Source of the DNA: Candidatus Cryptobacteroides sp. | GTDB lineage: Bacteria > Bacteroidota > Bacteroidia > Bacteroidales > UBA932 | Assembly: GCA_045597895.1 (NCBI GenBank) | Contig: JAZLLA010000053.1 | Span: forward strand, 24,988-88,987 | Reading direction: 5' to 3' | DNA length: 64,000 bases | In this document: positions 21,395-50,383 of the stretch, piece after piece | Position numbering within the stretch: the stretch's first letter is position 1 | Layout: every line of letters begins with the position of its first letter | Translations under genes and position numbers: made by a program | The notes under the pieces: generated by a model | Told to the model about the DNA's origin: nothing | What the model saw: only the letters and a program-made list of their open reading frames with translations | The model's database searches: none

Positions 21395-21473
21395 GAGCTA
21401 TATGATAAAATTTTAGCTTTTTTTTGTGTGGTTGCAAGCAATCAAATCAGTCCACGTTTCCGATGCAAAGGTA
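21395..21473 (-). promoter_or_regulatory. metK promoter plus possible SAM-II-like riboswitch leader
   Basis: On the minus strand: a -7 box TACCTTTG (plus coordinates 21466-21473) with TTTG 18 nt upstream. An approximately 105-nt leader then contains GAUUUGAUUGCUUGCAACCACACAAAAAAAAGCUAAAA. GCUU and AAGC can form the pseudoknot helix, and the A-rich AAAGCU string resembles my memory of the SAM-II consensus. Confidence 0.3.
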
Positions 21474-33917: not shown

Positions 33918-33950
33918 AGCGTGGTCCCCTACAGGGTCGCGCTTTTTTTT
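33918..33950 (+). terminator. terminator after the nuclease gene
   Basis: Imperfect 10-bp stem (AGCGTGGTCC / GGGTCGCGCT, with G-U pairs) and a 5-nt loop, followed by T8. Confidence 0.5.
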
Positions 33951-34949
33951 ATGAAACTTATAATGAAGACAACCTCCAAATCTCAAATTCTTTTTTTTCC
34001 CTACATCGATGTTCTTGTACAAGTTCTTATTGTGGAAGGAAGGGTAGGAACTGCCCAGTCATATATAAAGGCCAAATCCAGTTTCCTCTGTTTTCTCAAA
34101 GAATCGGATAATATGGAAGAAGAATCCGTTAAGATAGAATCCATAGACAGTTTTATGATTGGAAGATACAACGGATATCTTCTTTCACGAGGGCTTGTCC
34201 GCAATAGCATTTCTTTTTACAACAGGGTGCTTCGTTCGATTTATAACAAGGCCGTAAAGCAATACCATCTGGTCGACAAGCGTCCGTTTGACCAGGTATA
34301 TACCGGTGTGGACAAAACAGTCAACAGGGCAATAAGAGAGAGCACAATTGCAAAACTCCTTGTATTGAATCTGTCATATGATAAAACTCTTGAAATGGTA
34401 AGAGATTTATTTGTGTTCAGCTATGCTGCTAGAGGGATGGCATTTGTCGACATTGCATATCTTAGGAAAGCGAACATCCACGGAAAATATATAACATATT
34501 GCAGGAAGAAGACAGGTACAAGATTGGAGATAAGAATAGAAGATCAAATCGATAAACTGATCAAGAAATATACCAATCCGAATAGTCAGTATGTCTTCCC
34601 GATTCTTGAAGGGGCATCATCAGATGACGAACAGGAGGTATATCGTCATTATCAGTCAAAACTGGCTTCTTTCAATAGAAAGTTAAAGACATTGGCATCA
34701 ATGGTTGATGAGCCGCTCAAACTGACTACATATGTAGCCCGGCACAGTTGGGCAACTGCGGCCAGAAATACAAACATTCCAATGAGCATAATCAGCGAGG
34801 GCCTGGGCCATAAAAGCGAGCGTACAACCAGAATATACCTCGCATCTTTTGATGAGAGTCTTATAGATGAAGCAAATGTGAAGCTTTTGAAGAGGATTGG
34901 ATATTTGTTCGTATCTATGAAAGAGACGAACAATGGCCTTGTAGATTAG
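33951..34949 (+). CDS. tyrosine site-specific recombinase (phage integrase family, Bacteroidales fimbrial-locus type)
   Basis: Catalytic box ARHSWATAA ... LGHKSERTTRIY (R..H-x-x-R..Y) and an N-terminal SAM-like core-binding region. AT-rich. Start at ATG 33951; alternatives are nearby. Confidence 0.85.
   Translation: MKLIMKTTSKSQILFFPYIDVLVQVLIVEGRVGTAQSYIKAKSSFLCFLKESDNMEEESVKIESIDSFMIGRYNGYLLSRGLVRNSISFYNRVLRSIYNKAVKQYHLVDKRPFDQVYTGVDKTVNRAIRESTIAKLLVLNLSYDKTLEMVRDLFVFSYAARGMAFVDIAYLRKANIHGKYITYCRKKTGTRLEIRIEDQIDKLIKKYTNPNSQYVFPILEGASSDDEQEVYRHYQSKLASFNRKLKTLASMVDEPLKLTTYVARHSWATAARNTNIPMSIISEGLGHKSERTTRIYLASFDESLIDEANVKLLKRIGYLFVSMKETNNGLVD
34914..34930. repeat. left arm of a 17-bp perfect inverted repeat (candidate inverton IRL)
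   Basis: TCTATGAAAGAGACGAA. Its exact reverse complement lies at 35049-35065. The arm sits inside the last codons of the recombinase gene. Confidence 0.85.
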
Positions 34950-35009
34950 TCAAACATTATACTTTTGAAATTAGCTCATTACAGAAAATGAAAATTTATC
35001 ACCAAAATG

Positions 35010-35041
35010 TTTGTTCTATCTTAAAATTTCCTATATATTTG
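35010..35041 (+). promoter_or_regulatory. consensus Bacteroides promoter inside the candidate invertible segment, facing the pilus-like operon
   Basis: TTTG (35010-35013), 20 nt, then TATATTTG (35034-35041), ending 7 nt before the right IR arm. A second -7-like box TACTTTTG lies at 34960-34967. Confidence 0.55.
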
Positions 35042-35048
35042 CCACTGT

Positions 35049-35065
35049 TTCGTCTCTTTCATAGA
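35049..35065. repeat. right arm of the 17-bp inverted repeat (candidate inverton IRR)
   Basis: TTCGTCTCTTTCATAGA is the reverse complement of 34914-34930. The spacer is 118 bp. Confidence 0.85.
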
Positions 35066-35300
35066 ACATGACAAACTGAACAGTGTGAAAATAGTGAGTT
35101 TTCCTGATTTTGGTTGACTCGATTACGTCTTATCTCTAGAAGAAGTGGTATTTGAAGGACGTTCAGTATCAGAAAGAGGGGGGATATAAGAATGGGCAGT
35201 GATATAGCTGCCCGTGTATTGTTGTTTCGTCGCGTTTGTTTGCTTGACTTTGTGCAATGGTAATATGTTTGATAGTCACAGAACACTGAAAACACTCATT

Positions 35301-35927
35301 ATGGAGAAGTCACTCCTTCTGGTGTTTATTCTGTTCAGCCTTCCGTTGTCTGCGCAGGAGGTCAAGGATTCTGTATCCGTTAGGGGCCCTTCTTCTCCAC
35401 AGGCAGAGAAGCGTGAGGAGCCTTCTAATAGCCGTGCAGAGTGCCGTTTGGGAACCAATATCCTGTATGATGTGGCCACTGTTGCCAATCTTTCACTGGA
35501 AATCGGTTTCGCCAGACGTGTGGCGCTTAATCTCTCCTCTGCTTTCAGTCCCTGGGACATCAAGCCAGACCTTAAATTCAGGGCCCTCCTTCTTCAGCCG
35601 GAGCTCCGTTGCTATCTTTCGAAGGGTTTCAAGGGGCACTATCTGGGCGCAGAGGGTCATTATGGATGGTACAATATCGCCATCTGCGATATGGACAGGT
35701 ATCAGGACAGGGACGGGAACACACCTCTATGGGGTGCGGGCCTCAGTTATGGATACGTCGTTTCATTCAACAGACATCTGGGTATGGACTTCAGTATCAG
35801 TGCCGGATACGCGAAACTTGTCTATGACTGCTTCTACAACATCGAGAACGGCGCAAAGTTTACCACGGTAACCCGTGAATGGTGGGGCCCCACCAGGATA
35901 GGGATGTCCATTTATTATCAGTTTTAA
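35301..35927 (+). CDS. DUF3575-family outer membrane beta-barrel protein
   Basis: Signal peptide MEKSLLLVFILFSLPLSAQE. The pattern LGTNILYDVATVANLSLEIGF...LLLQPELRCYL...GHYLGAEGHYGWYNI...GAGLSYGYV...WWGPTRIGMSIYYQF matches my memory of DUF3575, the first gene of many Bacteroidales fimbrial operons. Confidence 0.8.
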   Translation: MEKSLLLVFILFSLPLSAQEVKDSVSVRGPSSPQAEKREEPSNSRAECRLGTNILYDVATVANLSLEIGFARRVALNLSSAFSPWDIKPDLKFRALLLQPELRCYLSKGFKGHYLGAEGHYGWYNIAICDMDRYQDRDGNTPLWGAGLSYGYVVSFNRHLGMDFSISAGYAKLVYDCFYNIENGAKFTTVTREWWGPTRIGMSIYYQF

Positions 35928-35930
35928 GCC

Positions 35931-36971
35931 ATGAGGAGAATGACGTCCATACTTATGGCTTTGAGCCTTGCCACATTCTTTATCTGCTCCTGCGAGAAGA
36001 TACACGAGTTCCCTATGGAGGGGAGGGACATTGATCCTACAGAGATTGGAGCCGGTATCGACATCAGGTGCAAGGTCGAGGTTCCGGTACACGATATCAT
36101 CACGCGATCAGTGTTCTCGGACCCTCAGTCGCAGGCATCTGCTTCTGATTACGAGCGCCGTTATGTCGTGAATATATATGCAGCGGAATACACTGACACG
36201 TTGGTGGAGTCGCATACTGTATACCGCGAGGCGGAAGATGTCTCAGACCTTCTCATCGAAACGAAACTTCATGCGAGAAAGTACAGGCTGGTCGTCTGGA
36301 TGGATTATGTACGGAAGGATACTGGGCAGGACCTGTATTATCAGACAGGCGACGGCAAGATGCTGAACGCCATCCATCAGCCTTCTGCGCGCAGTTATCT
36401 TGCATGCAGCGATTTCAAGGACGCGCAGTCGTTCGTTTCGGATATCGATCTGACTTCCTATTCCGGAAAGTGGTTTGAGAGTGTGTCCATAACCGCTCCT
36501 CTTTCCCGTCCGGTAGCGAAAATCACCATCCTTGCAAGTGACTTCGAGGATTATGCTTCTTCCATAGGATACACGGGGCCGCTTTCAGCTCTGGCGGATG
36601 ACATAATCGTCGACGTCAGCTATGACGGGTACTATCCGACAGGCTTCAACGCCTTCACCGGCAAGCTGAATGACTCGGAACCGGGATACGGATTCAGTTC
36701 ATGCCTGACGTATCCTTATTCTTTGGACGGCATTGATTACACCCGTATGGGTTTCGACTATGTGTTCGTCAACAACGACAAGTCTTCCGTGACCCTCACT
36801 GTAAGGATCAAGTCCGGGAGCGGACAGTTCATCAATGAAATCAGTACCATCGTCGTTCCGGTGGAAAGGGGAAAGGAAACGGTGGTGATATATAAGTTCT
36901 TCACAAAGGAAAGTGTCCCTGGAATAGGTATCAATCCTGGATTTGACGGAGAGTTCAACGTATATGTATAG
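35931..36971 (+). CDS. FimB/Mfa2-like fimbrial anchor-type lipoprotein
   Basis: Lipobox FFICSC, 346 aa. Motifs YRLVVWMDYV, DLYYQT, DAQSF and LSRPVAKITILASD parallel the FWAD / DAFF / RPFAQLN motifs of the downstream paralogues and of the Mfa2 family. Confidence 0.55.
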   Translation: MRRMTSILMALSLATFFICSCEKIHEFPMEGRDIDPTEIGAGIDIRCKVEVPVHDIITRSVFSDPQSQASASDYERRYVVNIYAAEYTDTLVESHTVYREAEDVSDLLIETKLHARKYRLVVWMDYVRKDTGQDLYYQTGDGKMLNAIHQPSARSYLACSDFKDAQSFVSDIDLTSYSGKWFESVSITAPLSRPVAKITILASDFEDYASSIGYTGPLSALADDIIVDVSYDGYYPTGFNAFTGKLNDSEPGYGFSSCLTYPYSLDGIDYTRMGFDYVFVNNDKSSVTLTVRIKSGSGQFINEISTIVVPVERGKETVVIYKFFTKESVPGIGINPGFDGEFNVYV

Positions 36972-37701
36972 AAAGTCCTGCATATTGATAGCAATTGCTC
37001 TTGTACTGGTTTCCTGCAGCAAGGATCCGGTCGGGAGCGGGGTGGATACACGGTTCTGCGCTACCATAGAGCCCGAGGTCACCGTGCGTTCCGGTGTAGC
37101 GGAAGATGAGCCTGTCGTCGCTGACCACGCCATTCTTGAAATCTGGATGAACGGTTCCCTGAAGGTCCGTCAGGAGAAGGGAATGCAGCCGGGTGCGAAA
37201 CGGGTTGCATTTGATAATGTAAGGCTTGCCGGTGGACAGGACTATGATGTCTTCGTCTGGGTGGACTGCCAGGGATTCTATAAAACGGATGACTTGCGTA
37301 GCGTGAGCCTGAATGCTGAAACGAATTATGACGGAGGGACCCCTGGATTTGATGCTTTCTTCGCATACACGCAAATACACAGCAGCCAGGGTGGCGGTGT
37401 CTGCGATGTCGTTCTGAAAAGGCCGTTTGCCAGGCTGAACTTCAGTGCCGGTGTATCTTCGCCGGCAACGATCGGTTTTACGGCAGCCACCACGCTCGAC
37501 CTCAAAACCGGCGTGGTGTCAGGCTCCAGGGAATTCCAGTATACCATAGCTCCGACCGATTCCGGGGTGGCGGCATTCGATTATGTGTTTGCCGATGAGA
37601 GTCAGGGGCGGATGGATTATTCGTTTACTTTGGGCGGAGCTCAACCAATCACTGCTTCTATCCCGATAGAAAGGAATAAAGTAACAAATATCATAAAATA
37701 A
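36964..37701 (+). CDS. short pilin-fold lipoprotein (paralogue P3, divergent)
   Basis: Lipobox LVLVSC. Motifs VFVWVD, DAFFAY, LKRPFARLNF, FDYVFAD and ERNKVTNI. 8-nt overlap (ATGTATAG) with the upstream gene. Confidence 0.5.
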   Translation: MYRKSCILIAIALVLVSCSKDPVGSGVDTRFCATIEPEVTVRSGVAEDEPVVADHAILEIWMNGSLKVRQEKGMQPGAKRVAFDNVRLAGGQDYDVFVWVDCQGFYKTDDLRSVSLNAETNYDGGTPGFDAFFAYTQIHSSQGGGVCDVVLKRPFARLNFSAGVSSPATIGFTAATTLDLKTGVVSGSREFQYTIAPTDSGVAAFDYVFADESQGRMDYSFTLGGAQPITASIPIERNKVTNIIK

Positions 37702-37715
37702 GACCTTACCGAATT

Positions 37716-40700
37716 ATGAAAAACGCATTATTACTTCTCGCTTCCGCAGCGTTGCTCCTCGTGGGCTGTGCGAAGGAACCGGTTTCAGAGCAGGGCGGTG
37801 GGCTGACGGCAGTCACCTTTACTGCCGGATTCGAAAATGCAGCCGCTACGAGGGCGATTGCCGATAATGACGGCAACGGCGCAAATGTCACCCGCTGCAT
37901 TATGGAGATTTACTATGGAGATCAGCTCTACAAGCGCCTCGTGCAGCCTGTGTCCGCCCAGAAGGCGACATTCTCGGATGTTCCTGTAGTCGCAGGAAAG
38001 AAGTATCGCATTCTTTTCTGGGCCGACTGCGGCGACGGCCTTGAAGACAAGTACTTCGATGCTGATAACCTCAAGTCTGTCAAGCTCAAAAAGGATGCAT
38101 TCCTGACTGCGCTTAAGAGTAAGAACAATGACAAACTTGACGCATTCTTCTTCAGTGACGACTATACCGTGCCTCAGGGCGGCGGCAGTTACGATGCCAC
38201 TCTCACGCGTCCTTTCGCCCAGCTGAACATCATCACCACCGATGTGGGTGCAGACAACACCGTAACAGGCATCGACCTTCTTCCGGAGAAGGTTTCTGTC
38301 AGCTACACCGGGGCCAAAGAGATCAATGTCGCCACAGGCGAAGTGTCCGGCTCAGAGGCTTACGCATATGAGGCCTCCGTTTACGGCGAGTGGGCGACAG
38401 TAACTCCTACCCACAAGGAACTGACTCTCTCCATGGACTACATCCTCGCACCGGCAGAGAAGTCAATGATAGACGTGACCTTCAAGACAAAGAACGGTGA
38501 TGCGGTTGTGATGAACCACAGCCTGACCAATCTCCCTTGCCAGCGCAACTACCGCACCAACGTCAAGGGACAGCTCCTTACCGTCGGCGGCACCTGGACT
38601 GCAACGGTAACTCCGGACTGGACCGACTCTCGCAATGTCAACCTCAGGGAGGTGGAAGGCATAACCTCTCTCAACGAGGTGCTCGCTGTCGGCGCCAACG
38701 ACATTAAGGTCACTTTGCCTGCTACGTCTGACGGCTCGAAGGTTACCTTCACTTCTGTCAATAACCTTCAGGATATTGTCCTCAGCTTTGCGGGTTCAGG
38801 CCAGACAGTAACATTTACCAATGCTGACGGAGCGGCAGGCCCTAAGTCTCTGACTATCACCGCGCCGGAGGGCACCAGCCTTGTCTTCGAAAAGCCGCAG
38901 CAACACGTTGTCATCAACGGCACAAGCTATGATACCATTCAGGGTGCCTTCTCCGCCAACACCCTCGTCATCAGCGAAGGTGTGACTGTCGGGACCATCA
39001 AAATCACCGCCGGCGGACTTGAGATTCACGGAACTGTCAATACTATCGGCGAAGGCCTCACAAAAGATGTCAAGGTCCGCGAATGCGAAGACCTCAGCAC
39101 AAGCGTTTACAACGCGCTCAAGAATTACATCGACGCCCCTCAATACAAAGCTGTGCAGAACGGCGACAAATGGGATATCGTTGCTGCCGACAAGACCGCT
39201 ATGATAGGTGAGAACGTTTATTACAACATCACCGACGCATTGACAGCAGCCCAAAGTGGGCAGACCATAAAGCTTCTGATAGATCTTTCAGATACAGGTG
39301 TGATGAACCTCCCTGCGGGTGTCACCTTCGATGGCGACGGCCATCAGATTACCGGCGCTTCACCGATATATATCGCTGCTCAAGGCGGCACAGTGAAGAA
39401 CGTAGTCTTCAAGAATCTTCACAATGACAGCAACAAGCAGTCAGCTGCCTATGCCCAATCCCTTGCAGGCAAGGCCGAAATCTCCGGTTGTACTTTCGAT
39501 ATTTCCGACTGGGATGCCATCCAGATTACCACAAACTCTTCAAATGCCGAAATCGTCATCAAGGACAATGAGTTCAAGGCTGTTGATAAGACCGACAAGC
39601 AGAACCGCTTCATCCATATTCAGACAGACAACTATTCCAATGTTGATCTGAAGGCCGAAATTACAGGCAACAAGTTCTCAGGCATATACAACCTTCAGAA
39701 TGCTGCAATCGAGCTATATTGCCCGACCGATTTCAACAAGGTCAACATCTCAGGCAACTACCTTGACGGCAACAAGATTTCCGTATGTATAGCCAACAAG
39801 GAAAACGGTGCCTGGACAAATCATATTGAATCAGCCAAGAATTGGCTTGATGCAAACGGCCAGCCCGTAGCAATCAATGCTGCCATCAGAGCTGACGAAG
39901 CTGCAGAAAACATACTTCTCTGCACCACCCTTGAAGTCGCTCTCGAGGAATCAGCAAATTGGGCCGGCAGCCTCTGCATTCTGAACGAAACAGCTCTGCG
40001 CGAACTCTCAACCCTCGTGAATGGCGGAACCACTTTCGCGGGAAAGAAAGTTTCCCTTGTCAATGACATTGACCTCAAGAGCGTTCCTTTTACCCCGATT
40101 GGAAATGTTTCTTCTTATCCATCGGCTTCTTTTGCAGGAATTTTCGATGGAATGAACCACACTATCTCTAACCTTAAATGTACGGATAATACTCCAAATC
40201 ACGCTTGTGCCGCTTTGTTCGGAAGCATTTCTGGTAATAGCACAAGCGACTCGGGAACTGTTAAAAACTTGACGCTCAAGAATGTTGAAATAACAAGCAG
40301 CCATTATGCAGGTGGAATTGTCGCATACAGTTCTGCAAGTCCGCTTGTCATAGAGAATTGCAACATCAATGGAGGTACAATCACTTCAAGTCCTGAGTTG
40401 ATTGGAAGTACATTTGACAATGGTGATAAGGTTGGTGGCATTTTGGGTTATGCTGGTCAAGGAGGCAGTATTACAAACTGCGGAGTTCAGAACCTGACCA
40501 TTAAGGCATATCGTGACCTTGGAGGAATCGTGGGATATAACAAAAACAATATCAGCAATTGTTCAGTTGCAAACTGTGTTATTATCCAAGATAATACCAA
40601 TGCATATAAAAATGATGACATCACTACCTTTGGCGAAATAGTCGGCAATCAGGAAGTTGGAGAGTTGTCCAACAATACATACGACAACGTTATTATCAAA

Positions 40701-41528
40701 CGTATTCTCGCCGACGGTCTCATTTATACCAAAAACGCGAAGCTCTATGAGGTTTCCAAGGTGCCGGGTCTGCTTTATTTCCGTTATATGGTTACTGGCG
40801 GCAACACCTTTGCCGGCCAGACGGTGAAACTGTTGGAAGACCTCAACCTTGCATCCATTGACAATTATATTGGAACCAAGGGTAAATTCAGCGGCACCTT
40901 CGATGGTAACGGAAAAACAATCTCCAATCTAAAAATTTCAGGTGAGGCCAACAGCACTGCATTTTTCGGTAGTGTGTGGGAAGCAAACATCAAGGATCTC
41001 ACAATTTCAGGCGCCAATGTAACAAGCACCGGTGCAGACTACACAGGCATCCTTGCCGGCAATGGTTATGCTCATTTCGACAATTGTACTGTCAGCGGCA
41101 CCGTTTCAGGCGTAGAGCAGGTGGGTGCCATCATAGGATATCTCTCTTGCGGCCACATTAAGAATTGCAAGGTTGATGCTACAGTAAGTGGAACTTCACG
41201 TGTCGGTGTTCTTGCCGCTAAAGCAAATGTGGACAGTTCTTATGAGATTGAAGGTAACATCATAAAAGGCTCTGCAACTTCAGGGGATATCTATGCTGGA
41301 GGTGTTGTAGGCCAGATTATGTGCGGAACCGGAAAAGTATGGACCATCAAGAACAACTGCATTGATGCCACAGTCAGCAACGGTGGTTCTTTGATTGGCA
41401 ATGTCCGCAGCGGACAATGGGATGCCTTCCTAGCCGGTTATCAGGAGAACGTCACAGGTAACACCTGGACAGCATCAGGTAACTGCAAGATTACCGACGG
41501 TACAAATTCAGTAACAATCACTAAATAA
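37716..41528 (+). CDS. giant surface lipoprotein P4: type V pilin-fold base, conserved linker module, beta-helix-like region and two GLUG-type repeat modules
   Basis: Cys18 lipobox LLLVGC and Arg46 in ATRAIAD. Motifs FWAD, DAFF, LTRPFAQLNIITTD, MDYILA and QRNYRTNVKG in the first ~300 aa. Then ITAPEGTSLVFE...LEIHGTVN, the cap-like AMIGENVYYNITDALTAAQSGQTIKL, and repeated F.G.FDG.(N/G).TISNL plus GGIVAY/GGILGY/GGIVGY/GAIIGY strings. Confidence 0.6.
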   Translation: MKNALLLLASAALLLVGCAKEPVSEQGGGLTAVTFTAGFENAAATRAIADNDGNGANVTRCIMEIYYGDQLYKRLVQPVSAQKATFSDVPVVAGKKYRILFWADCGDGLEDKYFDADNLKSVKLKKDAFLTALKSKNNDKLDAFFFSDDYTVPQGGGSYDATLTRPFAQLNIITTDVGADNTVTGIDLLPEKVSVSYTGAKEINVATGEVSGSEAYAYEASVYGEWATVTPTHKELTLSMDYILAPAEKSMIDVTFKTKNGDAVVMNHSLTNLPCQRNYRTNVKGQLLTVGGTWTATVTPDWTDSRNVNLREVEGITSLNEVLAVGANDIKVTLPATSDGSKVTFTSVNNLQDIVLSFAGSGQTVTFTNADGAAGPKSLTITAPEGTSLVFEKPQQHVVINGTSYDTIQGAFSANTLVISEGVTVGTIKITAGGLEIHGTVNTIGEGLTKDVKVRECEDLSTSVYNALKNYIDAPQYKAVQNGDKWDIVAADKTAMIGENVYYNITDALTAAQSGQTIKLLIDLSDTGVMNLPAGVTFDGDGHQITGASPIYIAAQGGTVKNVVFKNLHNDSNKQSAAYAQSLAGKAEISGCTFDISDWDAIQITTNSSNAEIVIKDNEFKAVDKTDKQNRFIHIQTDNYSNVDLKAEITGNKFSGIYNLQNAAIELYCPTDFNKVNISGNYLDGNKISVCIANKENGAWTNHIESAKNWLDANGQPVAINAAIRADEAAENILLCTTLEVALEESANWAGSLCILNETALRELSTLVNGGTTFAGKKVSLVNDIDLKSVPFTPIGNVSSYPSASFAGIFDGMNHTISNLKCTDNTPNHACAALFGSISGNSTSDSGTVKNLTLKNVEITSSHYAGGIVAYSSASPLVIENCNINGGTITSSPELIGSTFDNGDKVGGILGYAGQGGSITNCGVQNLTIKAYRDLGGIVGYNKNNISNCSVANCVIIQDNTNAYKNDDITTFGEIVGNQEVGELSNNTYDNVIIKRILADGLIYTKNAKLYEVSKVPGLLYFRYMVTGGNTFAGQTVKLLEDLNLASIDNYIGTKGKFSGTFDGNGKTISNLKISGEANSTAFFGSVWEANIKDLTISGANVTSTGADYTGILAGNGYAHFDNCTVSGTVSGVEQVGAIIGYLSCGHIKNCKVDATVSGTSRVGVLAAKANVDSSYEIEGNIIKGSATSGDIYAGGVVGQIMCGTGKVWTIKNNCIDATVSNGGSLIGNVRSGQWDAFLAGYQENVTGNTWTASGNCKITDGTNSVTITK

Positions 41529-41537
41529 AATAAGACT

Positions 41538-44500
41538 ATGAAAAAAGTTTTTTTTCTTCTCGCTTCTGCAGCGCTTCTCATCGTGGGCTGCAACAAGGAG
41601 CAAATGTCCAATGGCACGGACGGCGGAATGATCACCGCCACCTTTACCGCCAATCTTGAAAGCGGAGTCGCCACCAGGGCTGTCGCTGACGGCGATGGTG
41701 CTGCTGCCAATGTCAACCGCTGTATTATGGAAATCTACTACGGTGATGCCCTCTATGCAAGGCAGATTGCCAAGGTTACGGACAAGCAGGCCACCTTTAA
41801 TGCTCAGGTAGTATCCAACAGAGGCTACACTGTTGCATTCTGGGCGGACCGCGTCGACGATGCAACTTCCGATACTGGTCTTGCAGCTGACAAGTATTAC
41901 AATACAGCATCTCTTAAGGAGATTACCTTCAAGAGCTCCTATGTCGGCAACGACGATGCACGTGATGCGTTCTTCGTATGCGAACCTTTCACGGTTAAGC
42001 AGACAGGAGGTGCATTCTCTGCAACGCTCAAGCGTCCGTTCGCCCAGATGAACGTCATCACCACCGATTGGGACAAGGTTACTACTGTAGAAGCCCTCAT
42101 ACCTGAGAAAGTGCAGGTCATCCTCAAGAACCCTATGGTCAAGTTCAACGCCGTTACCGGCGAGGCGTCTGCTGACGCGAACACTCCTTCCTTGACCTAT
42201 ACTGCAGCTGTTTACACTGCACCTGTTCCTGAAGAGCCCGTATCTACAACCGAAAAGACCCTCTCAATGGATTATCTCTTCGCTTCTGCAGATAAAGCCG
42301 TCATCGACATCGACTGGAAGGCCCTCCACGGCAGCGATACCGATGTAGAGCACACTTTCGCAGCAGTTCCTTACCAGCGCAACTACCGCACCAACATCAA
42401 GGGAGCCCTCCTTACAACCCAGGGCCAGTGGACAGTAGAGATTGATCCGCTTTGGGATTCACTCAATGACGGAAGCAAGGATATCAATGTTTACTACACA
42501 ACGGTAAATGAGGCTTCTGAAGTCAAAGGTGTTATCGAGGACAAGAAAGAAGATACAACCAAGGACGGACAGCCGATTTCCGTGACCATCAACAATGAAG
42601 TCGGAGGCCCGACCAACGACGATATCATCATTCCTGACAATACTCCTAAGGAAAAAACTCCTGAAATTATCCTAGACTTCAAGAAATTGTCGGCCGGTGC
42701 TCAGATTGTGATTCGTGACGAAGAGCATCCGAGAGATGCGGATGATGCTGCAAATGGTGCCAAAGAGTATGAAGGCGAAGTTGTAGTAATCGTACCTGAA
42801 GGAACCACTGCAACTCAGGTGAAGATTCTCACCAGCAAGTCAACCGTCACCGTACGTGGTGAGTATGGCACCGTTATCGCTTCTTGCGCACCTCAGACCA
42901 TTATCGTTGAGAAGGAAACCGTTATCGAAACTCTCGAAGTGATGAAGGGTAATGTGGAAGTTTACGGAAGGGTTAATTCTATTGTCAATAAAACTGCTGA
43001 GACAGAAGATGCTAAAGAATTAGTCTATGTTTACCTCTTCCAGGGTTCTACCTGGACGAAAGTTGAGACAGAAAAGAATGAGAAACTCGTTCCTCTTTAC
43101 CCTGTAGCCAAAGTTGGAGATAATATCTATTTCTCTGTCAAAGAGGCTCTTGCAGCTGTAAAGGCTGGTGATGTACTCACTCTGGTTTCAGATGCCACAC
43201 TTGATAAGAAACTTGTCATCAACGGTGGCAAGGACTTCACCCTTGACCTTGGTGGAAAGACCCTCACCGGTCGTGTAAATGTTGACGGCGCCAAATTGGT
43301 TGTGAAGAACGGTACAATCAATGCCGGTTCCTTCAATCAGGCATTGAACGTATACGGCTCAAAGGACCCTCAGTATAAGGATGGTATTTATTCATATGTG
43401 AAAGTTGAAAGCGATGTCATCCTTGACGGTGCAGTTTGCGCTCTTGGCATAATGAGCGTCAATGGAGATACATATTATCCTCTTGCATATGGTGTAAAGG
43501 TTGATTTCTATGGAAAGGCTTTGAACGTTCCTGCACAGGTAAGTGGGAACATTGGATTTGACAATTACAAGGCTAATATAGGCAATATTGACATTTCTGC
43601 CAATCTTCCTGCCGGAATCAGTGCTCCGAGCAAGGCGATGAGCCTCTACGGTCCCGTTGTAAACATTTATGGAGAAATGAGAAGCACTTATGCTCAAGAA
43701 GAGTGCCAGGCATTCATTCTAAGCGGCATGGCCCGCGTTAACGTTTATGATGGTGCATACATTGAGGGGGCTGAGGGCTTTGCAATGAAGTCCGGCAACT
43801 TGCACGTATATGGTGGAACCATCAAATCCAATGGCTCAAAAATAGATCCTGTCCAGGCTGTGAACAGCGGAGCCGAGGCATCAGGTGCTGCTATTTCAAT
43901 CACCAGCTACTATACTCACGATTTGTTTGAAGATAGGGCAAAAATACAGGTAAACATTGAAGGTGGTGAAATCCTGGCAGATAATAATGCCGCCCTTCTT
44001 GTGACACATTCTTATGCGGAATCCAAGCCTGTTGCCCTCAAGCAGGGTGTTGATCTTGCTATCAACGGAGGAAAGTTCACCAGCGGTTCAGGCATCCCTG
44101 TTATTTTTATCGACAATGCTGCAGAAGGCGACGCATTTGCAATGCCTGCCAAATTCATCTCCGGTGGCCAGTACAACAAGGCTCCTGAAGCCGGCTACAT
44201 TGCAGATGGCAAGAAAGCCGAACAGGATACTCATGGAAATTGGGAGATTGTGATGGATGAGCTCGCAACTGTCAATGGTATTAAATATGCTACTGTTCAA
44301 GAAGCCATTGAGGCAGCCAATACAGGTGATGTCATCAATGTCTATGGAACAACAAATTTCACCAAGTCTGATGACGGTTTCTGCTATGTCGATGCTACCA
44401 ACAAAACAGGACGACTCGTGCTTGTGGAACTTGTCAATGAAGGAAGCCCTACAACAAACGCTTCGCTGAAGGTAAATACTGCTCCTGCTGTAAATTCAAT

Positions 44501-45200
44501 GACATTCCAGACATTGTGGCTGGGCAGTGCAAGTCGTCTTGACGCTCCCGGCTCGTATCTGAAGAGTGGTGATGTGCTGGTGTTGCCAGCAAAGACTATG
44601 TACCTCAATAATGGCCCTATATATGATATGTATGGCGATATAACATTATTGGGAAAGAAAGGGAAAACTGTAATTAAACCGTGGGGAAGCCCTTCTTCGA
44701 AAGCACGTTTCTTCCGTCTGTATAATCGTTATAAAGCGAATATTGAAAATAAGATTATTTATCATTTCAATTTCAGAAATGTAACTTTTGACGGGGAACT
44801 GAAAAATAATGGTGAGAATCTGTTTATCGTAACTTGCTACAACATACAGATTAATATGGATGGTTGTACTGTTAAGAATTTCCCTGGAAGTGTCTTCAGC
44901 ATTTGGGCAAATGATGCTCTTAGTGATTCTTCATTCCCTACTAGAGAAGATAATGCTGGTGTTGAAGTAAATATCACCAATTCCACATTGACAGGAAACG
45001 GACGGCTGGTTAGATATGATTGCATACCAACTCAGTCAGATGTTAGCGCAAGTCTTAATAAGTATGGATTCATCCACGTGAATTATGATGCAAACTCTGT
45101 AGTGAATTGTACGGAAATGTACAATTTCAACGAAGTCACCGCCAAGGGTCAAGGCAACTGTCTCTTGAATGGTGTTGATGTTAGACCTGCAGATAACTAA
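41538..45200 (+). CDS. giant surface lipoprotein P5: pilin-fold base, conserved linker module and two beta-helix-like head modules
   Basis: Cys18 LLIVGC and Arg47 in ATRAVAD. Motifs FWAD, DAFF, LKRPFAQMNVITTD, MDYLFA and QRNYRTNIKG. Then the cap-like AKVGDNIYFSVKEALAAVKAGDVLTL and ATVNGIKYATVQEAIEAANTGDVINV. Module end GYIADGKKAEQDTHGNWEIV. Confidence 0.6.
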   Translation: MKKVFFLLASAALLIVGCNKEQMSNGTDGGMITATFTANLESGVATRAVADGDGAAANVNRCIMEIYYGDALYARQIAKVTDKQATFNAQVVSNRGYTVAFWADRVDDATSDTGLAADKYYNTASLKEITFKSSYVGNDDARDAFFVCEPFTVKQTGGAFSATLKRPFAQMNVITTDWDKVTTVEALIPEKVQVILKNPMVKFNAVTGEASADANTPSLTYTAAVYTAPVPEEPVSTTEKTLSMDYLFASADKAVIDIDWKALHGSDTDVEHTFAAVPYQRNYRTNIKGALLTTQGQWTVEIDPLWDSLNDGSKDINVYYTTVNEASEVKGVIEDKKEDTTKDGQPISVTINNEVGGPTNDDIIIPDNTPKEKTPEIILDFKKLSAGAQIVIRDEEHPRDADDAANGAKEYEGEVVVIVPEGTTATQVKILTSKSTVTVRGEYGTVIASCAPQTIIVEKETVIETLEVMKGNVEVYGRVNSIVNKTAETEDAKELVYVYLFQGSTWTKVETEKNEKLVPLYPVAKVGDNIYFSVKEALAAVKAGDVLTLVSDATLDKKLVINGGKDFTLDLGGKTLTGRVNVDGAKLVVKNGTINAGSFNQALNVYGSKDPQYKDGIYSYVKVESDVILDGAVCALGIMSVNGDTYYPLAYGVKVDFYGKALNVPAQVSGNIGFDNYKANIGNIDISANLPAGISAPSKAMSLYGPVVNIYGEMRSTYAQEECQAFILSGMARVNVYDGAYIEGAEGFAMKSGNLHVYGGTIKSNGSKIDPVQAVNSGAEASGAAISITSYYTHDLFEDRAKIQVNIEGGEILADNNAALLVTHSYAESKPVALKQGVDLAINGGKFTSGSGIPVIFIDNAAEGDAFAMPAKFISGGQYNKAPEAGYIADGKKAEQDTHGNWEIVMDELATVNGIKYATVQEAIEAANTGDVINVYGTTNFTKSDDGFCYVDATNKTGRLVLVELVNEGSPTTNASLKVNTAPAVNSMTFQTLWLGSASRLDAPGSYLKSGDVLVLPAKTMYLNNGPIYDMYGDITLLGKKGKTVIKPWGSPSSKARFFRLYNRYKANIENKIIYHFNFRNVTFDGELKNNGENLFIVTCYNIQINMDGCTVKNFPGSVFSIWANDALSDSSFPTREDNAGVEVNITNSTLTGNGRLVRYDCIPTQSDVSASLNKYGFIHVNYDANSVVNCTEMYNFNEVTAKGQGNCLLNGVDVRPADN

Positions 45201-45210
45201 CATAACTTTT

Positions 45211-45240
45211 TCCCGGGCGGGCCTGACCGCCCGACCGGGA
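45211..45240. repeat. GC-rich hairpin after P5 (member of a 3-copy intergenic hairpin family)
   Basis: TCCCGGGCGG GCCTGA CCGCCCG(AC)CGGGA: a 7-bp core stem plus an outer TCC/GGA. Related to 45715-45736 and 49382-49411. Confidence 0.6.
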
Positions 45241-45353
45241 TCCAAAGGAAACATAACAAATCAAATCAACAAAATAGCATGACCGGGCGTATCCATAACA
45301 TAACGAGAGCCACCTGCAGGCAAGCAGGCGGCTCCCGAACGGATGGGAAGAAG

Positions 45354-45698
45354 ATGGTTCAATTACCGTCTCCGGTAATGGGCTTTGACGTAAACCTTGC
45401 GGCCATTAACCACTCGGAAGTGGCCTCTGACACGGACCGGTTTGCGGCGAGACTCATCCTCACAGACTATCGTAAGGCGCTCTCTCGTGTTCTTAATTGT
45501 AAGGGCAATTTTCATAATATTGAAATTTTTAAGTCTGAGAACAAGGAGCGGCTTGAAATAGAGTACTCCATCCGTTTAGACAAAAACAGGACACCTATTC
45601 AAAATGAATCAAATGTCCTGTTGTACTTAGAGCACGAGAGCTTGCCTCCTCTCGACTTAAAATCGCCTTACGGGTGTAAAGGTATGAACAAATATTAA
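45354..45698 (+). CDS. orphan hypothetical ORF inside the 500-bp P5-P6 spacer (coding status doubtful)
   Basis: Open frame (139 aa from 45279, 114 aa from 45354) with no signal peptide and no motif I recognise. Its codon usage is A/T-ending, unlike its neighbours. Confidence 0.2.
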   Translation: MVQLPSPVMGFDVNLAAINHSEVASDTDRFAARLILTDYRKALSRVLNCKGNFHNIEIFKSENKERLEIEYSIRLDKNRTPIQNESNVLLYLEHESLPPLDLKSPYGCKGMNKY

Positions 45699-45714
45699 TA
45701 ATTCAAAATTTCCC

Positions 45715-45736
45715 CTTCCGGGCTTGACCGCCCGGG
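45715..45736. repeat. GC-rich hairpin (partial copy) before P6
   Basis: CCGGGC TTGACC GCCCGG followed by GAGCAAATAGAAA. The 16-nt core CGGGCtTGACCGCCCG repeats 45218-45233 exactly 500 bp upstream, with 1 mismatch. Confidence 0.6.
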
Positions 45737-45780
45737 AGCAAATAGAAAGAAAACAGATTATAGAAAACCAAAAAACGAAT

Positions 45781-48700
45781 ATGAAAAAAACTTTGTTACT
45801 TCTTGCTTCAGCAGCGCTTCTCATTGTGGGCTGCAACAAGGAACAGGTCGCAGAGAATGTGGCCGGTGAAGGTTTACAGACCGTAAGTTTCACCGTAGGT
45901 GTAGAATCAATTGCAACCAGAGCCGTTGATGACAATGACGGTAAAGCCGCTAACATCAACCAATGGGTGATACAGGTTATGGATTCGGATGGTGGAGTAT
46001 ATCATCATAAGGCAGAAAGCGGCGAATTGGGAAATACAACTCACACCTTCAATGTCCCTCTCGTCAAAGGCCAGACCTATAACATTCTTTTCTGGGCTGA
46101 TACCAAGGACAGTTATGTAGTTACAGACCTTCGCCAGGTAAAACGTTCTGAGAAAACATACCTCAAGGCAAACGCCGACAGCCTCGACGCTTTCAGTGCA
46201 GTGGTCAAGGATTTCTCCACCACTGTCGCCTCTAAGAAGGACATCACCCTCAAGCGCCCCTTCGCTCAGCTCAACGTCGTGTTCACAGACCTGAAGAAGC
46301 TGTATGAGACGATGAATAATTCTGATGAGTATGCAAAGTTCAAACCCGTTGACTTTGTTGCAAAGGCAAAGGTTCCTACAGAATTCAACGTGTTTACCCA
46401 GGAGGCCGGTGCCCCTGCAGAGACCGCTCTTGTAATGACAGCCGCTAAGGATTATCTTGGCAACTATACTTCCCATCGTGCCAAGGAGACTCTCTATATG
46501 GACTACATCTTTGCCTCCAAGGACACCAAGGACGTAGTTGACATCGACTTCTCCTTCGTGTCAAAGGGTGTTTCCATCGCACACAACTTCACATCCATAC
46601 CTTTCCAGCGCAACTTCCGCACCAACATCCTCGGTGAGTTCATGAGTGCAGGCGCCCAGTGGAATGTTAAGGTTGATCCTATCTGGTCAACTCCTGAATA
46701 TGATGTTCCGTTCCTTGCGGCTTCAACAATTGCTGAAGCTCAGAGCTATATTGCACCTGAAGCTGAAGGAACACAGACGTCAAAGGTCGTGGATCTTTCC
46801 AAAGCCACCATTACTGCGGAAGACATTGATGACGAAGATAATACAATCAAGTTTGAGTTGACGACCCATTCTCCTGCCGATATGGTCAACTTCACCCTTC
46901 CTGCAATCCCACAAGATGTTATCGATGCAGGTTGCACAGGTTGGAAGATTACTTACGAAGAAGGATATCCTACTAAGAATGTAAACGTAACCGCTCCTGA
47001 AGGAACTAATGTGACCATTGAAGCACCGGATTCGCATGTAACTCTGAATGGTACTGAGTATGAGCAGGTTACTGCCTCTACCGGTGACAAAACTCTTGTC
47101 GTTCCTGCAGGCGTAACTATTGATAAACTTATCGTCAAGAAGGGTGCCGTAGAGATCCACGGAACTGTCAACCACCTTACCGTTACCCCTGAAGAAGGTA
47201 AAGAAGTTGTCTTCCGCGCTTGCGAAGGCCTGAGCGCAGATGTATTTGCAGCCATCAAGGGAGAAGGTCACGACTATATCGATTATCCTATGTACACCTA
47301 CGAGCTTGTCGGTGAGAAATACAACATCTACAAACTCCCTGTAGTCGCTATGATCGGTGAGGCTGAGTATCCTTCAATCGCCGCAGCTCTTGCAGCTGTT
47401 CCTGCAGACAACACTGAGCTTGTTACCATCAAAGTGATGAGCGACGTGGCTATCAATTCAAGCTCTCTTGCAATCAACAAGAATAACGTCGTCCTCGATG
47501 GTCAGGGTCATACAATCGCTATCGATGAGACTGATGCCAGCCTTGATCCGTATCTTGTAGATGGAACTAGTAAGAGATATGGCAGTTTCCAGATGATTAA
47601 AGTATCAGGTAATGATGTTATTCTCAAGAATATGACTCTAGACAGCAGGAATTACCGTGGAGCTTCTCTTGCCACTACCTGTGGAGGCAAGAATGTTTCC
47701 TATGAGAACATTATCTACAAGGGCCTTGGTTCTGGGCACTATTATGGTTCTGCTGGCGGTGATGGTACTTTGAAATTCAAGAATTGTACATTCGAAACTC
47801 ACGGATATGCTATCCACACTGCAGAATGTCAATCTGTACTCGAAGTTTCAGACTGCGAAATCCATGGTTGGGTTTCCTATGGTGACAAAACAAAGAGTGC
47901 AACATTCACAAATACACACTTCTATTCAACTACGGATCAATACAATGGCGTTATTGCTACAATTCGTCCTTATTGCGCTACTACCTTTACCAATTGCACT
48001 TTCTCAAAAGAGTATTTGTCAAAATACAAATATGATGGCTTGACTGTAAGAAGCAATGTTGTTGTGTCTCTTAAAGGCTGTTCCGTTGAAGATGGCGAAC
48101 TTTGTGATATCGCCAACTTCACTGGCGATGATCCTTGGATTGACGGTGGCGTAATGGCTATCGATGCTACCGGCAACGCTACCAACGGCTTCACCGCAGG
48201 TACATTCGTAGCAAAGCAGGCAGAGGACATCAAGGTTTCATCCTTGTCAGAGTTGAAGACTGTTGAGGGAAAGCAGTATGTATATAAGGTTTCTGTTATT
48301 CCTGTTGCAAAGATAGGTGAAACTGAGTATGAAACCCTGCAGGCCGCTTTTGATGCCGTTCCTGACGGAACAAAAACCACTATCACTCTTATTGCCGATG
48401 CTAAGGCCGCAACTCTTGGAGACAAGAACAACATCGGAGCAAAGACTGTTATTCTCAACCTCAACGGCCACAGTATCACAGGCTATATGAGAGGCATCAC
48501 CGCTTTGACAGGCTCCACTTCTCTCGATGGTGCAACCCTGATCAACTATGCCAACCTCACCATCAATGGAGAGGGTACAATCGGTGATCTTGAAGGAGAT
48601 TATCATCACAATGCTCTTGTAAACATGTCTGATGGCACTAACCTAACAATTAATGGTGGAACATTTGTGGCAAAGAGCTGCTGCGTATACCACTATTCTG

Positions 48701-49374
48701 CAAGCAGTCAGGCCAATACCGCTTCTATTAATATCAATGGAGGCAACTTCAAGGCATATGAAAATGCAGCGACCAATAAATACGTGTTCGGTATCGGTGG
48801 AAAATCAGGCCAGACCCTAACATTCGACTATAAGAATGCATCAGCAGAAGGTGCAAAAGGTATCTACTGCAGCCTTGCCGGTACGGCAATCAATGTTCAC
48901 TCAGGTTCAATCACAGCTGATATCAATGCCATCAATCTGAGTATGGGCAAGAATGTTACCATAAATATCGATGGCGGCAAATTGGAGACTTTGGATTCAG
49001 AAAGTCATGCCAATAATTATATGTCGAATGGGTCATATGCGGGATCATCACTTCCTATTTTTGCCAGCGCATTCGGTAGCGAGAATGTCGTTTGTAACAT
49101 AAGCGGTGGAGAATTTATCTATCCTTATTACTCTTGGCAGAGTAGTGGAACCAAACCTGCAACCTGGGAGCGTGTAATCAACGCTGGTGTGGGCATTACC
49201 AGCAACGTGGCCAATGCCAACATTACTGCATCCCTCACCGGCGGTACCTATTCAACCAACCAGATGCTTTCCGACATCACAAATGATCAGTCTGCGGCAT
49301 CAGGAATTGTAGCAGAAGGCTACACCTGCAAGAATAATGGCGACGGTACCTGGACAGTGGTAGCAGCTAACTAA
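45781..49374 (+). CDS. giant surface lipoprotein P6: pilin-fold base, conserved linker module and two beta-helix-like head modules
   Basis: Cys18 LLIVGC and Arg47 in ATRAVDD. Motifs FWAD, DAFS, LKRPFAQLNVVFTD, MDYIFA and QRNFRTNILG. Then VTAPEGTNVTIE...VEIHGTVN, and the cap-like AMIGEAEYPSIAAALAAV and AKIGETEYETLQAAFDAV. Terminal AEGYTCKNNGDGTWTVVAAN. Confidence 0.6.
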   Translation: MKKTLLLLASAALLIVGCNKEQVAENVAGEGLQTVSFTVGVESIATRAVDDNDGKAANINQWVIQVMDSDGGVYHHKAESGELGNTTHTFNVPLVKGQTYNILFWADTKDSYVVTDLRQVKRSEKTYLKANADSLDAFSAVVKDFSTTVASKKDITLKRPFAQLNVVFTDLKKLYETMNNSDEYAKFKPVDFVAKAKVPTEFNVFTQEAGAPAETALVMTAAKDYLGNYTSHRAKETLYMDYIFASKDTKDVVDIDFSFVSKGVSIAHNFTSIPFQRNFRTNILGEFMSAGAQWNVKVDPIWSTPEYDVPFLAASTIAEAQSYIAPEAEGTQTSKVVDLSKATITAEDIDDEDNTIKFELTTHSPADMVNFTLPAIPQDVIDAGCTGWKITYEEGYPTKNVNVTAPEGTNVTIEAPDSHVTLNGTEYEQVTASTGDKTLVVPAGVTIDKLIVKKGAVEIHGTVNHLTVTPEEGKEVVFRACEGLSADVFAAIKGEGHDYIDYPMYTYELVGEKYNIYKLPVVAMIGEAEYPSIAAALAAVPADNTELVTIKVMSDVAINSSSLAINKNNVVLDGQGHTIAIDETDASLDPYLVDGTSKRYGSFQMIKVSGNDVILKNMTLDSRNYRGASLATTCGGKNVSYENIIYKGLGSGHYYGSAGGDGTLKFKNCTFETHGYAIHTAECQSVLEVSDCEIHGWVSYGDKTKSATFTNTHFYSTTDQYNGVIATIRPYCATTFTNCTFSKEYLSKYKYDGLTVRSNVVVSLKGCSVEDGELCDIANFTGDDPWIDGGVMAIDATGNATNGFTAGTFVAKQAEDIKVSSLSELKTVEGKQYVYKVSVIPVAKIGETEYETLQAAFDAVPDGTKTTITLIADAKAATLGDKNNIGAKTVILNLNGHSITGYMRGITALTGSTSLDGATLINYANLTINGEGTIGDLEGDYHHNALVNMSDGTNLTINGGTFVAKSCCVYHYSASSQANTASININGGNFKAYENAATNKYVFGIGGKSGQTLTFDYKNASAEGAKGIYCSLAGTAINVHSGSITADINAINLSMGKNVTINIDGGKLETLDSESHANNYMSNGSYAGSSLPIFASAFGSENVVCNISGGEFIYPYYSWQSSGTKPATWERVINAGVGITSNVANANITASLTGGTYSTNQMLSDITNDQSAASGIVAEGYTCKNNGDGTWTVVAAN

Positions 49375-49381
49375 TCTTTTT

Positions 49382-49411
49382 TCCCGGGCGGGCGATCAAG
49401 CCCGCCCGGGA
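49382..49411. repeat. GC-rich perfect hairpin after P6
   Basis: TCCCGGGCGGGC GATCAA GCCCGCCCGGGA (12-bp stem) followed by GCAAATTGAAA, the same tail as the copy at 45737. Confidence 0.8.
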
Positions 49412-49437
49412 GCAAATTGAAACGAAGAACTATATTT

Positions 49438-50349
49438 ATGAAAAAATCATTATTTGCGATTGCTTCTATGGCACTCCTGCTTGCGGGGTGTGCCAAGGAA
49501 CAGATATCAAGCCCGGCAGGTGATGGGCAGACCGTCAAGGTGAGCGTCATGGCGCAGTTGCAGAACGGCGGCCAGACCAGGGCCACCTGGGACCATGATG
49601 GTGAAGGTGCGCTTGTGGACCACTGGATTATGGAGGTCTATGATGCTCAGGGATTGCTTTTCGATCGTCAGGAAAAAAGCGGGCAGTCCGGCCTTACAAA
49701 CACATTCGAGCTGGCTCTCATAAAGAACCAGACCTATAAGTTCGCCTTCTGGGCGGACACGAAGGATATGTACGACACAGCCGACCTTCGTGCCGTCAAG
49801 ACGGTTTCCCGCAAGGCTGGCCGCGACAGCAGGGACGCATTCTTTGCAGCGAAGGAGTATACTTCCACAAAGAGCGAGACTCTCACGGCGGAACTTTACC
49901 GCCCGTTCGCACAGATCAATGTCGTGACTCTCGATCTCGACAAGATTTATAAGCAGATGGAAGCGGCAGAGACGACTGCGAATTATGACAAGTTTATTCC
50001 TACCGAGATCAAACTCACAGGTGAGACATACAACCAGTTCAATGTTCTGACCGGAGAGGTCTCGGATGTCCAGTCGTATGTGCTCAACCTTGCAAGCTGC
50101 TATGCCGATTATGCCGCACACGCTGAGGTAAGCACCATTTTCATGGATTATGTATTCGCCAAGACTGAAAAAGAGCTCAAGGATCTTTCCTTCTCTTTCG
50201 TCTCAAATAAAGTACCTGTCTCATACAGCTTTGCGAATGTCCCTGTCCAGCGCAACTACCGTACGAACATCACCGGCAACCTGCTCAGTTATGACGCTGA
50301 GTGGTCAGTGGAAATCATTCCTGCCTGGCTGGGAACCCACGAGTACTAA
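49438..50349 (+). CDS. short pilin-fold lipoprotein P7 (headless paralogue)
   Basis: Cys18 LLLAGC and Arg48 in QTRATWD. Motifs FWAD, DAFF, LYRPFAQINVVTLD, MDYVFA and QRNYRTNITG. It ends right after WSVEIIPAWLG. Confidence 0.6.
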   Translation: MKKSLFAIASMALLLAGCAKEQISSPAGDGQTVKVSVMAQLQNGGQTRATWDHDGEGALVDHWIMEVYDAQGLLFDRQEKSGQSGLTNTFELALIKNQTYKFAFWADTKDMYDTADLRAVKTVSRKAGRDSRDAFFAAKEYTSTKSETLTAELYRPFAQINVVTLDLDKIYKQMEAAETTANYDKFIPTEIKLTGETYNQFNVLTGEVSDVQSYVLNLASCYADYAAHAEVSTIFMDYVFAKTEKELKDLSFSFVSNKVPVSYSFANVPVQRNYRTNITGNLLSYDAEWSVEIIPAWLGTHEY

Positions 50350-50383
50350 TGGTCAGAGCTTCGATAGATAAACGTTTCAATTT

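Follow-up and report, generated by a model that had tools for sequence, protein, structure and literature searches.

Whether the short cassette that lies between a tyrosine recombinase gene and a set of pilus-like genes in Candidatus Cryptobacteroides sp. is a promoter that can be turned around is the question raised by this locus. The cassette occupies 152 bp of a 64,000-nucleotide stretch of contig JAZLLA010000053.1, which was analyzed as a whole and is referred to here as the window. The segment between the arms of the cassette was found in both orientations in natural DNA, and it is very probable that the cassette is a site-specific invertible promoter, served by the upstream tyrosine recombinase and gating the pilus-like operon. 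The elements involved are the following:

33951-34949, + strand: tyrosine recombinase gene, 332 aa as oriented here (Pfam Phage_int_SAM_5 and Phage_integrase)
34905-34933, in the last recombinase codons: left core recombination site, dyad TTGTTCGTaTCT-ATGAA-AGAGACGAACAA, a near-perfect internal palindrome
34914-34930, + strand: left inverted-repeat arm TCTATGAAAGAGACGAA, to which inversion junctions map
34931-35048: invertible segment, 118 bp, 73% A+T, present in other assemblies as its reverse complement with unchanged flanks
34960-34967, + strand: second -7-like box TACTTTTG, a weak candidate, in the window and a sister species only
35010-35041, + strand: Bacteroidetes-type promoter motif, with -33 TTTG (35010-35013), N20, and -7 TATATTTG (35034-35041)
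35049-35065, + strand: right inverted-repeat arm TTCGTCTCTTTCATAGA; the right core site has a degenerate outer half
35066-35264, + strand: leader of about 200 nt, between the right arm and ATG 35265

Inverted Repeat and Orientation of the Segment in Natural DNA

The two arms matched at 17/17 positions across a spacer of 118 nt, and both the coordinates of the perfect repeat and the A+T richness of its interior, as claimed in an earlier sequence-only reading of this DNA, were verified (73% A+T inside the arms; G+C content of the whole window, 52%). A search of the 64 kb that tolerated as many as three mismatches returned the arm 17-mer nowhere else. Perfect inverted repeats of at least 17 bp with a spacer of 20-500 nt numbered two in the window and zero in 100 dinucleotide shuffles, which bears out the claim that such a pair would hardly arise by chance; the second repeat is an unrelated element within uvrA.

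The promoter motif of the window faces the downstream DUF3575/pilin genes, and the window cassette is therefore read as the ON orientation, in agreement with the sequence-only reading. Orientations elsewhere were called from assembled contigs, metagenomes and metagenome-assembled genomes (MAGs), all metagenome runs being compared against the window as reference. In the window's species, and likewise in a sister species with a syntenic locus and an 88% identical recombinase, the segment inverts and its breakpoints fall within the arms; the flipped orientation that had been predicted was recovered as flipped junctions at the arms in metagenome contigs and MAGs of both species. The 118-bp segment was reverse-complemented, with unchanged flanks, in runs X1, X12, X5, and X22 and in loci L003, L004, and L005.

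For the window's species, a scan of genome contigs with the recombinase protein returned a single locus, of that same species, and the nearest genome record (Candidatus Cryptobacteroides sp. MAG L001) was identical in cassette and flanks over ~415 bp and had the same orientation, the window and L001 both being ON. The gut-metagenome run X1 carries the window's species at 95-100% identity; in its contigs, 34914 was joined to 35066, and 34930 to 35048, in each case with a change of strand and an overlap of 17 letters, which corresponds to both flipped junctions, and no contig of this run was in the window's orientation. Sister-species loci were ON in L002 and flipped in L003, L004, and L005, and among the runs carrying this species X12 and X5 were flipped and X7, X13, X8-X11, X23, and X24 were ON. 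In run X22 the contig breaks coincided exactly with the arms, and the four junctions were all present at about 50:50: depths were 35.9 for ON-left plus 27.9 for OFF-left vs. 62.7 for the left flank, and 25.6 for ON-right plus 33 for OFF-right vs. 58.1 for the right flank. Run X4 was also mixed, with an ON-left depth of 9.1 beside a left flank of 23.6, plus an OFF-right contig. The exact two-arm pattern ATGAAAGAGACGAA-N100-130-TTCGTCTCTTTCAT gave no match in the metagenome contigs scanned.

Core Sites and Position of the Crossover

Judging from its sequence, each arm supplies the inner half of a core with dyad symmetry, of the form (G)TTCGTCTCT, asymmetric N3-5 spacer, AGAGACGAA(C). The dyad anatomy of the left site was also present in relatives L006, L007, L008, and L009; in the right site, the inner half and the spacer were as in the left one, next to the degenerate outer half. 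Arm position 15 was G in one sister-species arm and T in the other, and this base lay on swapped sides in L004 (flipped) as compared to L002, with the outer flanks in place. Since the innermost 3 bp travel with the segment, strand exchange is placed within the shared outer 14 bp (TCTATGAAAGAGAC), and it would take place around the asymmetric ATGAA spacer, as expected of a tyrosine-recombinase core site.

Recombinase Gene and Its Orientation-Dependent Tail

The recombinase gene starts at ATG 33951, as given by the exact protein P0001, and not at GTG 33921. Residues R161, K187, R264, H287, and Y296 were invariant in an alignment of 14 sequences of its clade, the catalytic residues being intact. 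The left arm falls in the last codons of the open reading frame (stop codon 34947-34949), as the sequence-only reading had placed it. Flipping of the window cassette gives a predicted recombinase of 335 aa whose C-terminus changes from ...KETNNGLVD to ...KETKQWQIYRKF; "QIY" in this flipped tail is encoded by the reverse-complemented -7 box, translated in the frame of the recombinase. The rewriting of the C-terminus that had been foreseen was found in real proteins, P0007 and P0014, which come from flipped assemblies. Recombinase tails of the sister species were ...KETNNGHVD and ...VSMKETNNGHVD vs. ...KETKLFQIYRKN, ...VSMKETKLFQIYRKN, and ...KETKLP, with a divergence that begins inside the arm.

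Two further observations concern this gene. The 33918-33950 stretch, directly before ATG 33951, is occupied by a strong hairpin that resembles a terminator and carries a T8 run, leaving no room for a promoter between them, so that transcription of the recombinase must come from 5' of this hairpin or pass through it. When L001:4961-5944 was compared with window positions 33963-34949, cassette and recombinase 3' end were identical and the recombinase only 93% identical overall; this combination suggests mosaic divergence or recombination within the recombinase gene between L001 and the window.

Promoter Motifs in the Cassette

The full promoter motif TTTG-N20-TATATTTG reported at 35010-35041 was verified on the + strand. 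Motifs of this type numbered four in the window vs. 0.3 expected by chance. The -7 box ends 7 nt short of the right arm, and transcription would be expected to start at about 35047-35050, at the edge of this arm. The second -7-like box proposed at 34960-34967 (TACTTTTG) is present as well; its standing is weaker, as it is conserved only in the sister species, has no TTTG at -33, and was not found at the matching position in L006, L008, and L009.

Conservation Among Recombinase Relatives

Recombinases 49-56% identical to that of the window (P0015-P0025) shared a C-terminal extension ...VS[LFM][KR]ETN, and more distant homologs were without it. Loci were examined for four members of the clade defined by this extension (L006, L007, L008, and L009/L010). 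All of them had an inverted repeat whose left arm encodes the recombinase tail, and in L006, L008, and L009 the right arm lay ~120 nt downstream, giving cassettes of 151-158 bp. The central spacers (TTTAA, GCA, TAC, and AAC) varied between loci and were identical in the two arms of one locus. A -7 box (TACCTTTG, TAAATTTG, or TATATTTG) stood at a near-constant offset from one arm in the clade loci, pointing toward the recombinase in L006, L007, and L009 and away from it in L008. The comparison of arms in related genomes that the sequence-only reading had proposed thus showed arms that are conserved as a pair and co-vary locus by locus, with the promoter position kept.

A more distant set comprised 80 metagenome loci with recombinases of 38-49% identity. 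In 33 of these 80 loci an inverted repeat followed just 3' of the gene, and the distance between one of its arms and a -7 box was 4-16 nt; the -7 box faced the recombinase in 29 of the 33 and away from it in 4, and L050 and L052 displayed the same inverted repeat in opposite orientations. The recurrence of this layout in the distant set and in the clade loci indicates that a recombinase with an adjacent promoter inverton is common in this part of the family. The left site appears to have been absorbed into the recombinase reading frame in the window's clade, being located downstream of the gene in the distant relatives. As judged from the assembled sequences, OFF is the usual state among relatives and the ON state of the window a minority one.

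The genes lying behind these homologous cassettes were varied. In L007:4641-5123 and L008:7162-7641, the gene directly 3' of the inverton encodes a protein of ~160 aa with Phage_int_SAM_5 only and no catalytic domain; such SAM-like-only proteins could be phase-variable DNA-binding regulators derived from a recombinase. In L006:3123-6146, the inverton is followed by genes for HATPase_c, DUF3575 (438 aa), and DUF5119 proteins, in this order, so that the pairing of DUF3575 with a protein that is possibly pilin-like recurs behind this recombinase clade with other partner families.

Genes Downstream of the Cassette

The genes that follow the leader are listed below:

35265-35927, + strand: DUF3575 protein with signal peptide, first gene of the operon (Pfam PF12099, E = 2e-36)
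35931-36971, + strand: DUF6562 lipoprotein, fold similar to type V pilins (Pfam PF20200, E = 4e-70)
36964-37701, + strand: second, shorter DUF6562 lipoprotein
37716-41528, + strand: 1270-aa lipoprotein, N-terminal DUF6562 pilin-like domain and GLUG/M26-N-like region, adhesin-like
41538-45200, + strand: 1220-aa lipoprotein, N-terminal DUF6562 domain, last gene before a gap of 523 nt
45781-51331, + strand: three more DUF6562 genes, one of ~1200 aa with a pectate-lyase-like adhesive domain and two of ~310 aa

The start of the DUF3575 gene was taken as ATG 35265, which is conserved in the sister species, ATG 35301 not being so. The AlphaFold 2 (AF2) model of the 35931-36971 protein had a pLDDT of 82, and its Foldseek comparison against the PDB retrieved 3pay, 3up6, 4qdg, 5nfi (Mfa2 anchor), and 5nf4 (Mfa3 tip) with E values from 1e-9 to 4e-7; the top 26 PDB matches all belonged to the Bacteroidales pilin superfamily, with probability 1.0 and TM-scores of ~0.3-0.5. 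Lipobox-like signal peptides ending in ...(G/S)C were found in 7/7 DUF6562 reading frames, and a "TRA" motif occurred 20-30 residues past the lipobox Cys in 5/7. Type V pilins are made as lipoprotein precursors that undergo Arg-specific maturation. Pilin fold and lipoprotein signals fit proteins of this kind, and the description of the cargo as a type V pilus-like operon, uncharacterized but recognizable, is supported by the structural model.

Several DUF6562 paralogs of different sizes are present, and the giant members look like tip adhesins, to judge from their sequences. A large tip adhesin on type V pili has a precedent in Mfa5 of P. gingivalis. Of the earlier claim of a pilus-like operon with a very unusual cargo, the first half therefore gains from the type V pilin fold and the second was overstated, large tip adhesins being already known. 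No cargo protein received a name from NCBIfam, and sequence searches of the PDB with DUF3575 and DUF6562 proteins were empty or gave noise. In the literature searched DUF6562 was without mention, and DUF3575 came up in four papers.

The gap of 523 nt (45201-45723) splits the DUF6562 array and starts with a G+C-rich hairpin (CCCGGGCGGGCC...). No -7 box (TAnnTTTG) was found in 45201-45790. The possibility that the 45781 gene is preceded by an inverton of its own was considered and rejected, as that place is without a -7 box and the rest of the window without a further dyad site. The genes at 45781-51331 are candidate further members of the transcription unit.

Proposed Mechanism and Alternative Explanations

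In the mechanism that we propose, both core sites would be bound and brought together by the recombinase, and strand exchange in the outer 14 bp would then reverse the 118-bp segment. In the ON state, TTTG-N20-TATATTTG would fire across the right arm and through the 200-nt leader into the operon, driving DUF3575, the two DUF6562 pilin-fold lipoproteins, and the two adhesin-like proteins of ~1200 aa. In the OFF state, the promoter would point antisense into the recombinase 3' end, and the tail would pass from ...KETNNGLVD to ...KETKQWQIYRKF. The most likely role of the cassette is thus to turn a pilus/adhesin operon on and off. Catalysis of the flip by the linked recombinase, control of transcription by orientation, and frequent switching within a clone are what we infer from the sequences, and the roles assigned to recombinase and promoter would rest on strong comparative evidence together with the precedent of known systems.

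Some observations weigh against this reading. As assembly drops rare variants, minority states would be invisible in contigs; most runs showed a single orientation; and the ON-right and OFF-left junction contigs of X22 carry different bases at 35044-35049, because of which its 50:50 mixture may correspond to two co-resident haplotypes and not to one switching clone. All this is compatible with orientations that are fixed strain differences left by rare historical inversions, in place of active and frequent phase variation. We regard such an explanation as distinctly unlikely, since both orientations recur independently (in the window's species, and in L050 vs. L052), one sister-species haplotype is ON in L002 and OFF in L004 with the same inner sequence, breakpoints are always within the arms, and homologous systems switch in culture (PMC12940148, PMC4611039). 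Moreover, arms stay complementary within a locus while diverging between loci, which requires continued selection for recombination. Still less probable, to the point of being negligible, is that the inverted repeat is left over from a small transposable element, as its terminal repeats, or ends transcription of the recombinase gene as a long-range terminator. Segments of ~150 bp that are A+T-rich and flanked by inverted repeats can be miniature inverted-repeat transposable elements (MITEs), and an inverted-repeat element of this sort occurs in uvrA of the same window; however, the 17-mer is absent elsewhere in the window, the cassette is always linked to the recombinase clade at the same position, and a loop of 118 nt would make a poor terminator. 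The cassette was seen inverted in place and never absent or elsewhere, which contradicts the transposon and terminator readings.

It is also conceivable, though unlikely, that the cassette inverts without acting as a simple gate, either because a hairpin in the leader stops most of the transcripts or because a fixed motif drives the operon; under either version inversion would mainly tune leader RNA or recombinase expression. The points in favor of this, which likewise count against a promoter switch, are found in the leader. It contains a terminator-like hairpin (35192-35215) followed by a T-rich tract between promoter and first gene, and a further full promoter motif, TTTG-N21-TATGTTTG at 35239-35271, lies just 5' of ATG 35301 and could give orientation-independent expression. 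The leader is in addition unusually long (~200 nt) when compared to relatives L006, L007, and L008, where the next gene starts no more than ~20 nt past the right arm; a 59-nt stretch of it (35092-35150) is absent from the sister species. On the other side, the T tract 3' of the hairpin is interrupted and the leader fold is unremarkable (z-score -1.6). The proximal motif is probably fortuitous: ATG 35265, the conserved start codon, falls within its -7 box, and in the sister species TTCG stands in place of its -33 element. Characterized Bacteroides invertons combine long leaders with strong ON/OFF control, as in BT1927 with its intergenic region of 887 bp (PMC4611039). An Rfam scan of cassette and leader returned no credible family. 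An invertible promoter gating the operon continues to be the reading that we favor.

Other Features of the Window

The second long inverted repeat lies in a uvrA-like open reading frame (55562-58474, - strand). It is perfect over 21 bp (56640-56660 and 56730-56750) with a 69-nt spacer, in frame, and extends to ~31 bp when imperfect matches are allowed (element region 56630-56760), forming a ~40-aa insertion relative to solved UvrA structures. In four metagenomes, contig depth was 50-100 times as high over its core (56654-56738) as over the uvrA flanks, and the core was joined to many different flanks. On account of this depth excess and these many flanks it looks like a very high-copy palindromic MITE or REP-like element, tolerated in frame within an essential repair gene. 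The possibility of an intragenic recoding inverton was discarded, since the flipped frame gains a stop. The only Rfam family match in the window was a SAM-II riboswitch aptamer at 21403-21461 (- strand; 58 bits, E = 1.5e-8, above the Rfam gathering threshold).

Comparison with Known Invertons and Significance

By its sequence organization, the locus is a new case of the known Tsr-type promoter inverton of Bacteroidales, a well-known kind of switch in this order. In Phocaeicola vulgatus, the Tsr gene BVU2684 is located 5' of an invertible promoter of the Mfa1-type pilus locus BVU2678-2683, with a >100-fold difference between ON and OFF, and inversion needs Tsr proteins (PMC12940148). That system shares with the window an upstream tyrosine recombinase, short inverted repeats around the promoter, and a type V pilus operon downstream. 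It differs in the repeat (TACTTNNNANGTAANNGAA vs. TCTATGAAAGAGACGAA here) and in the cargo, annotated as Mfa1/Mfa2 in P. vulgatus and DUF3575/DUF6562 here; in the window, moreover, the left site is inside the recombinase reading frame, and the locus is known from sequence alone.

The S-layer locus BT1927 of B. thetaiotaomicron and its seven paralogs carry a tyrosine recombinase beside their promoters, the sites being imperfect 17-nt palindromes whose central trinucleotide varies and OFF being the majority state (PMC4611039; bioRxiv 10.1101/521070). These loci and that of Tsr26 of B. fragilis resemble the window in the locus-specific tyrosine recombinase beside an invertible promoter, and they present the same dyad anatomy as the window and L009 (GTCTCTC-AAC-GAGAGAC). 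Their site is GTTAC-N7-GTAAC in contrast to TCT-N5-AGAGAC here (PMC4611039), the element measures 256-301 bp vs. 152 bp, and the cargo consists of an S-layer lipoprotein and an OmpA-like barrel instead of pilins. An S-layer inverton of the BT1927/Tsr26 type was consequently rejected for the window, whose arms (TCTATGAAAGAGACGAA) are without GTTAC-N7-GTAAC and are followed by DUF3575/DUF6562 and not by a BT1927-like lipoprotein.

The fimS switch of E. coli is similar in that tyrosine recombinases (FimB/FimE) invert a short promoter cassette of a fimbrial operon, whereas it has 9-bp inverted repeats, an element of 314 bp, a sigma-70 promoter, chaperone-usher pili, two recombinases, and dependence on IHF and Lrp; its recombinases and that of the window are related at the superfamily level only. 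In FimE orientational control, the recombinase transcript runs into the fimS switch and its fate depends on orientation, to which the orientation-dependent recombinase 3' end of the window locus is a parallel. The Mpi polysaccharide invertons of B. fragilis also are short promoter cassettes flanked by inverted repeats, controlling phase-variable surface structures in the same order, but they depend on a serine recombinase acting globally in trans and have other repeats and capsule loci with upxY/upxZ. The Mpi repeat consensus is ARACGTWCGT, which by eye is missing from the window arms.

No new mechanism is revealed by this locus. That the orientation-dependent recombinase tail and an antisense promoter activity in the OFF state make it more than a member of the known kind is possible but unsupported. 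It is rather doubtful that one flip, in turning the pilus promoter, swapping the recombinase tail and aiming a strong antisense promoter into the recombinase gene in the OFF state, provides a built-in feedback that senses orientation. If this were true, tail isoforms or antisense transcription would alter the level or the directionality of the recombinase, the ON-to-OFF and OFF-to-ON rates would be set independently, and FimE orientational control would have its counterpart in Bacteroidales.

As read here, the cassette would extend the surface phase variation of Bacteroides type to Candidatus Cryptobacteroides, an uncultured gut genus, and would tie a switch to DUF3575 and DUF6562, families with essentially no literature. 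The mapped core sites and the natural ON and OFF alleles may serve as material for locked constructs and for scoring the locus in metagenomes. For DUF6562, this would be a first functional handle, pointing to a role in variable, adhesive pili that carry very large adhesins resembling tip proteins.

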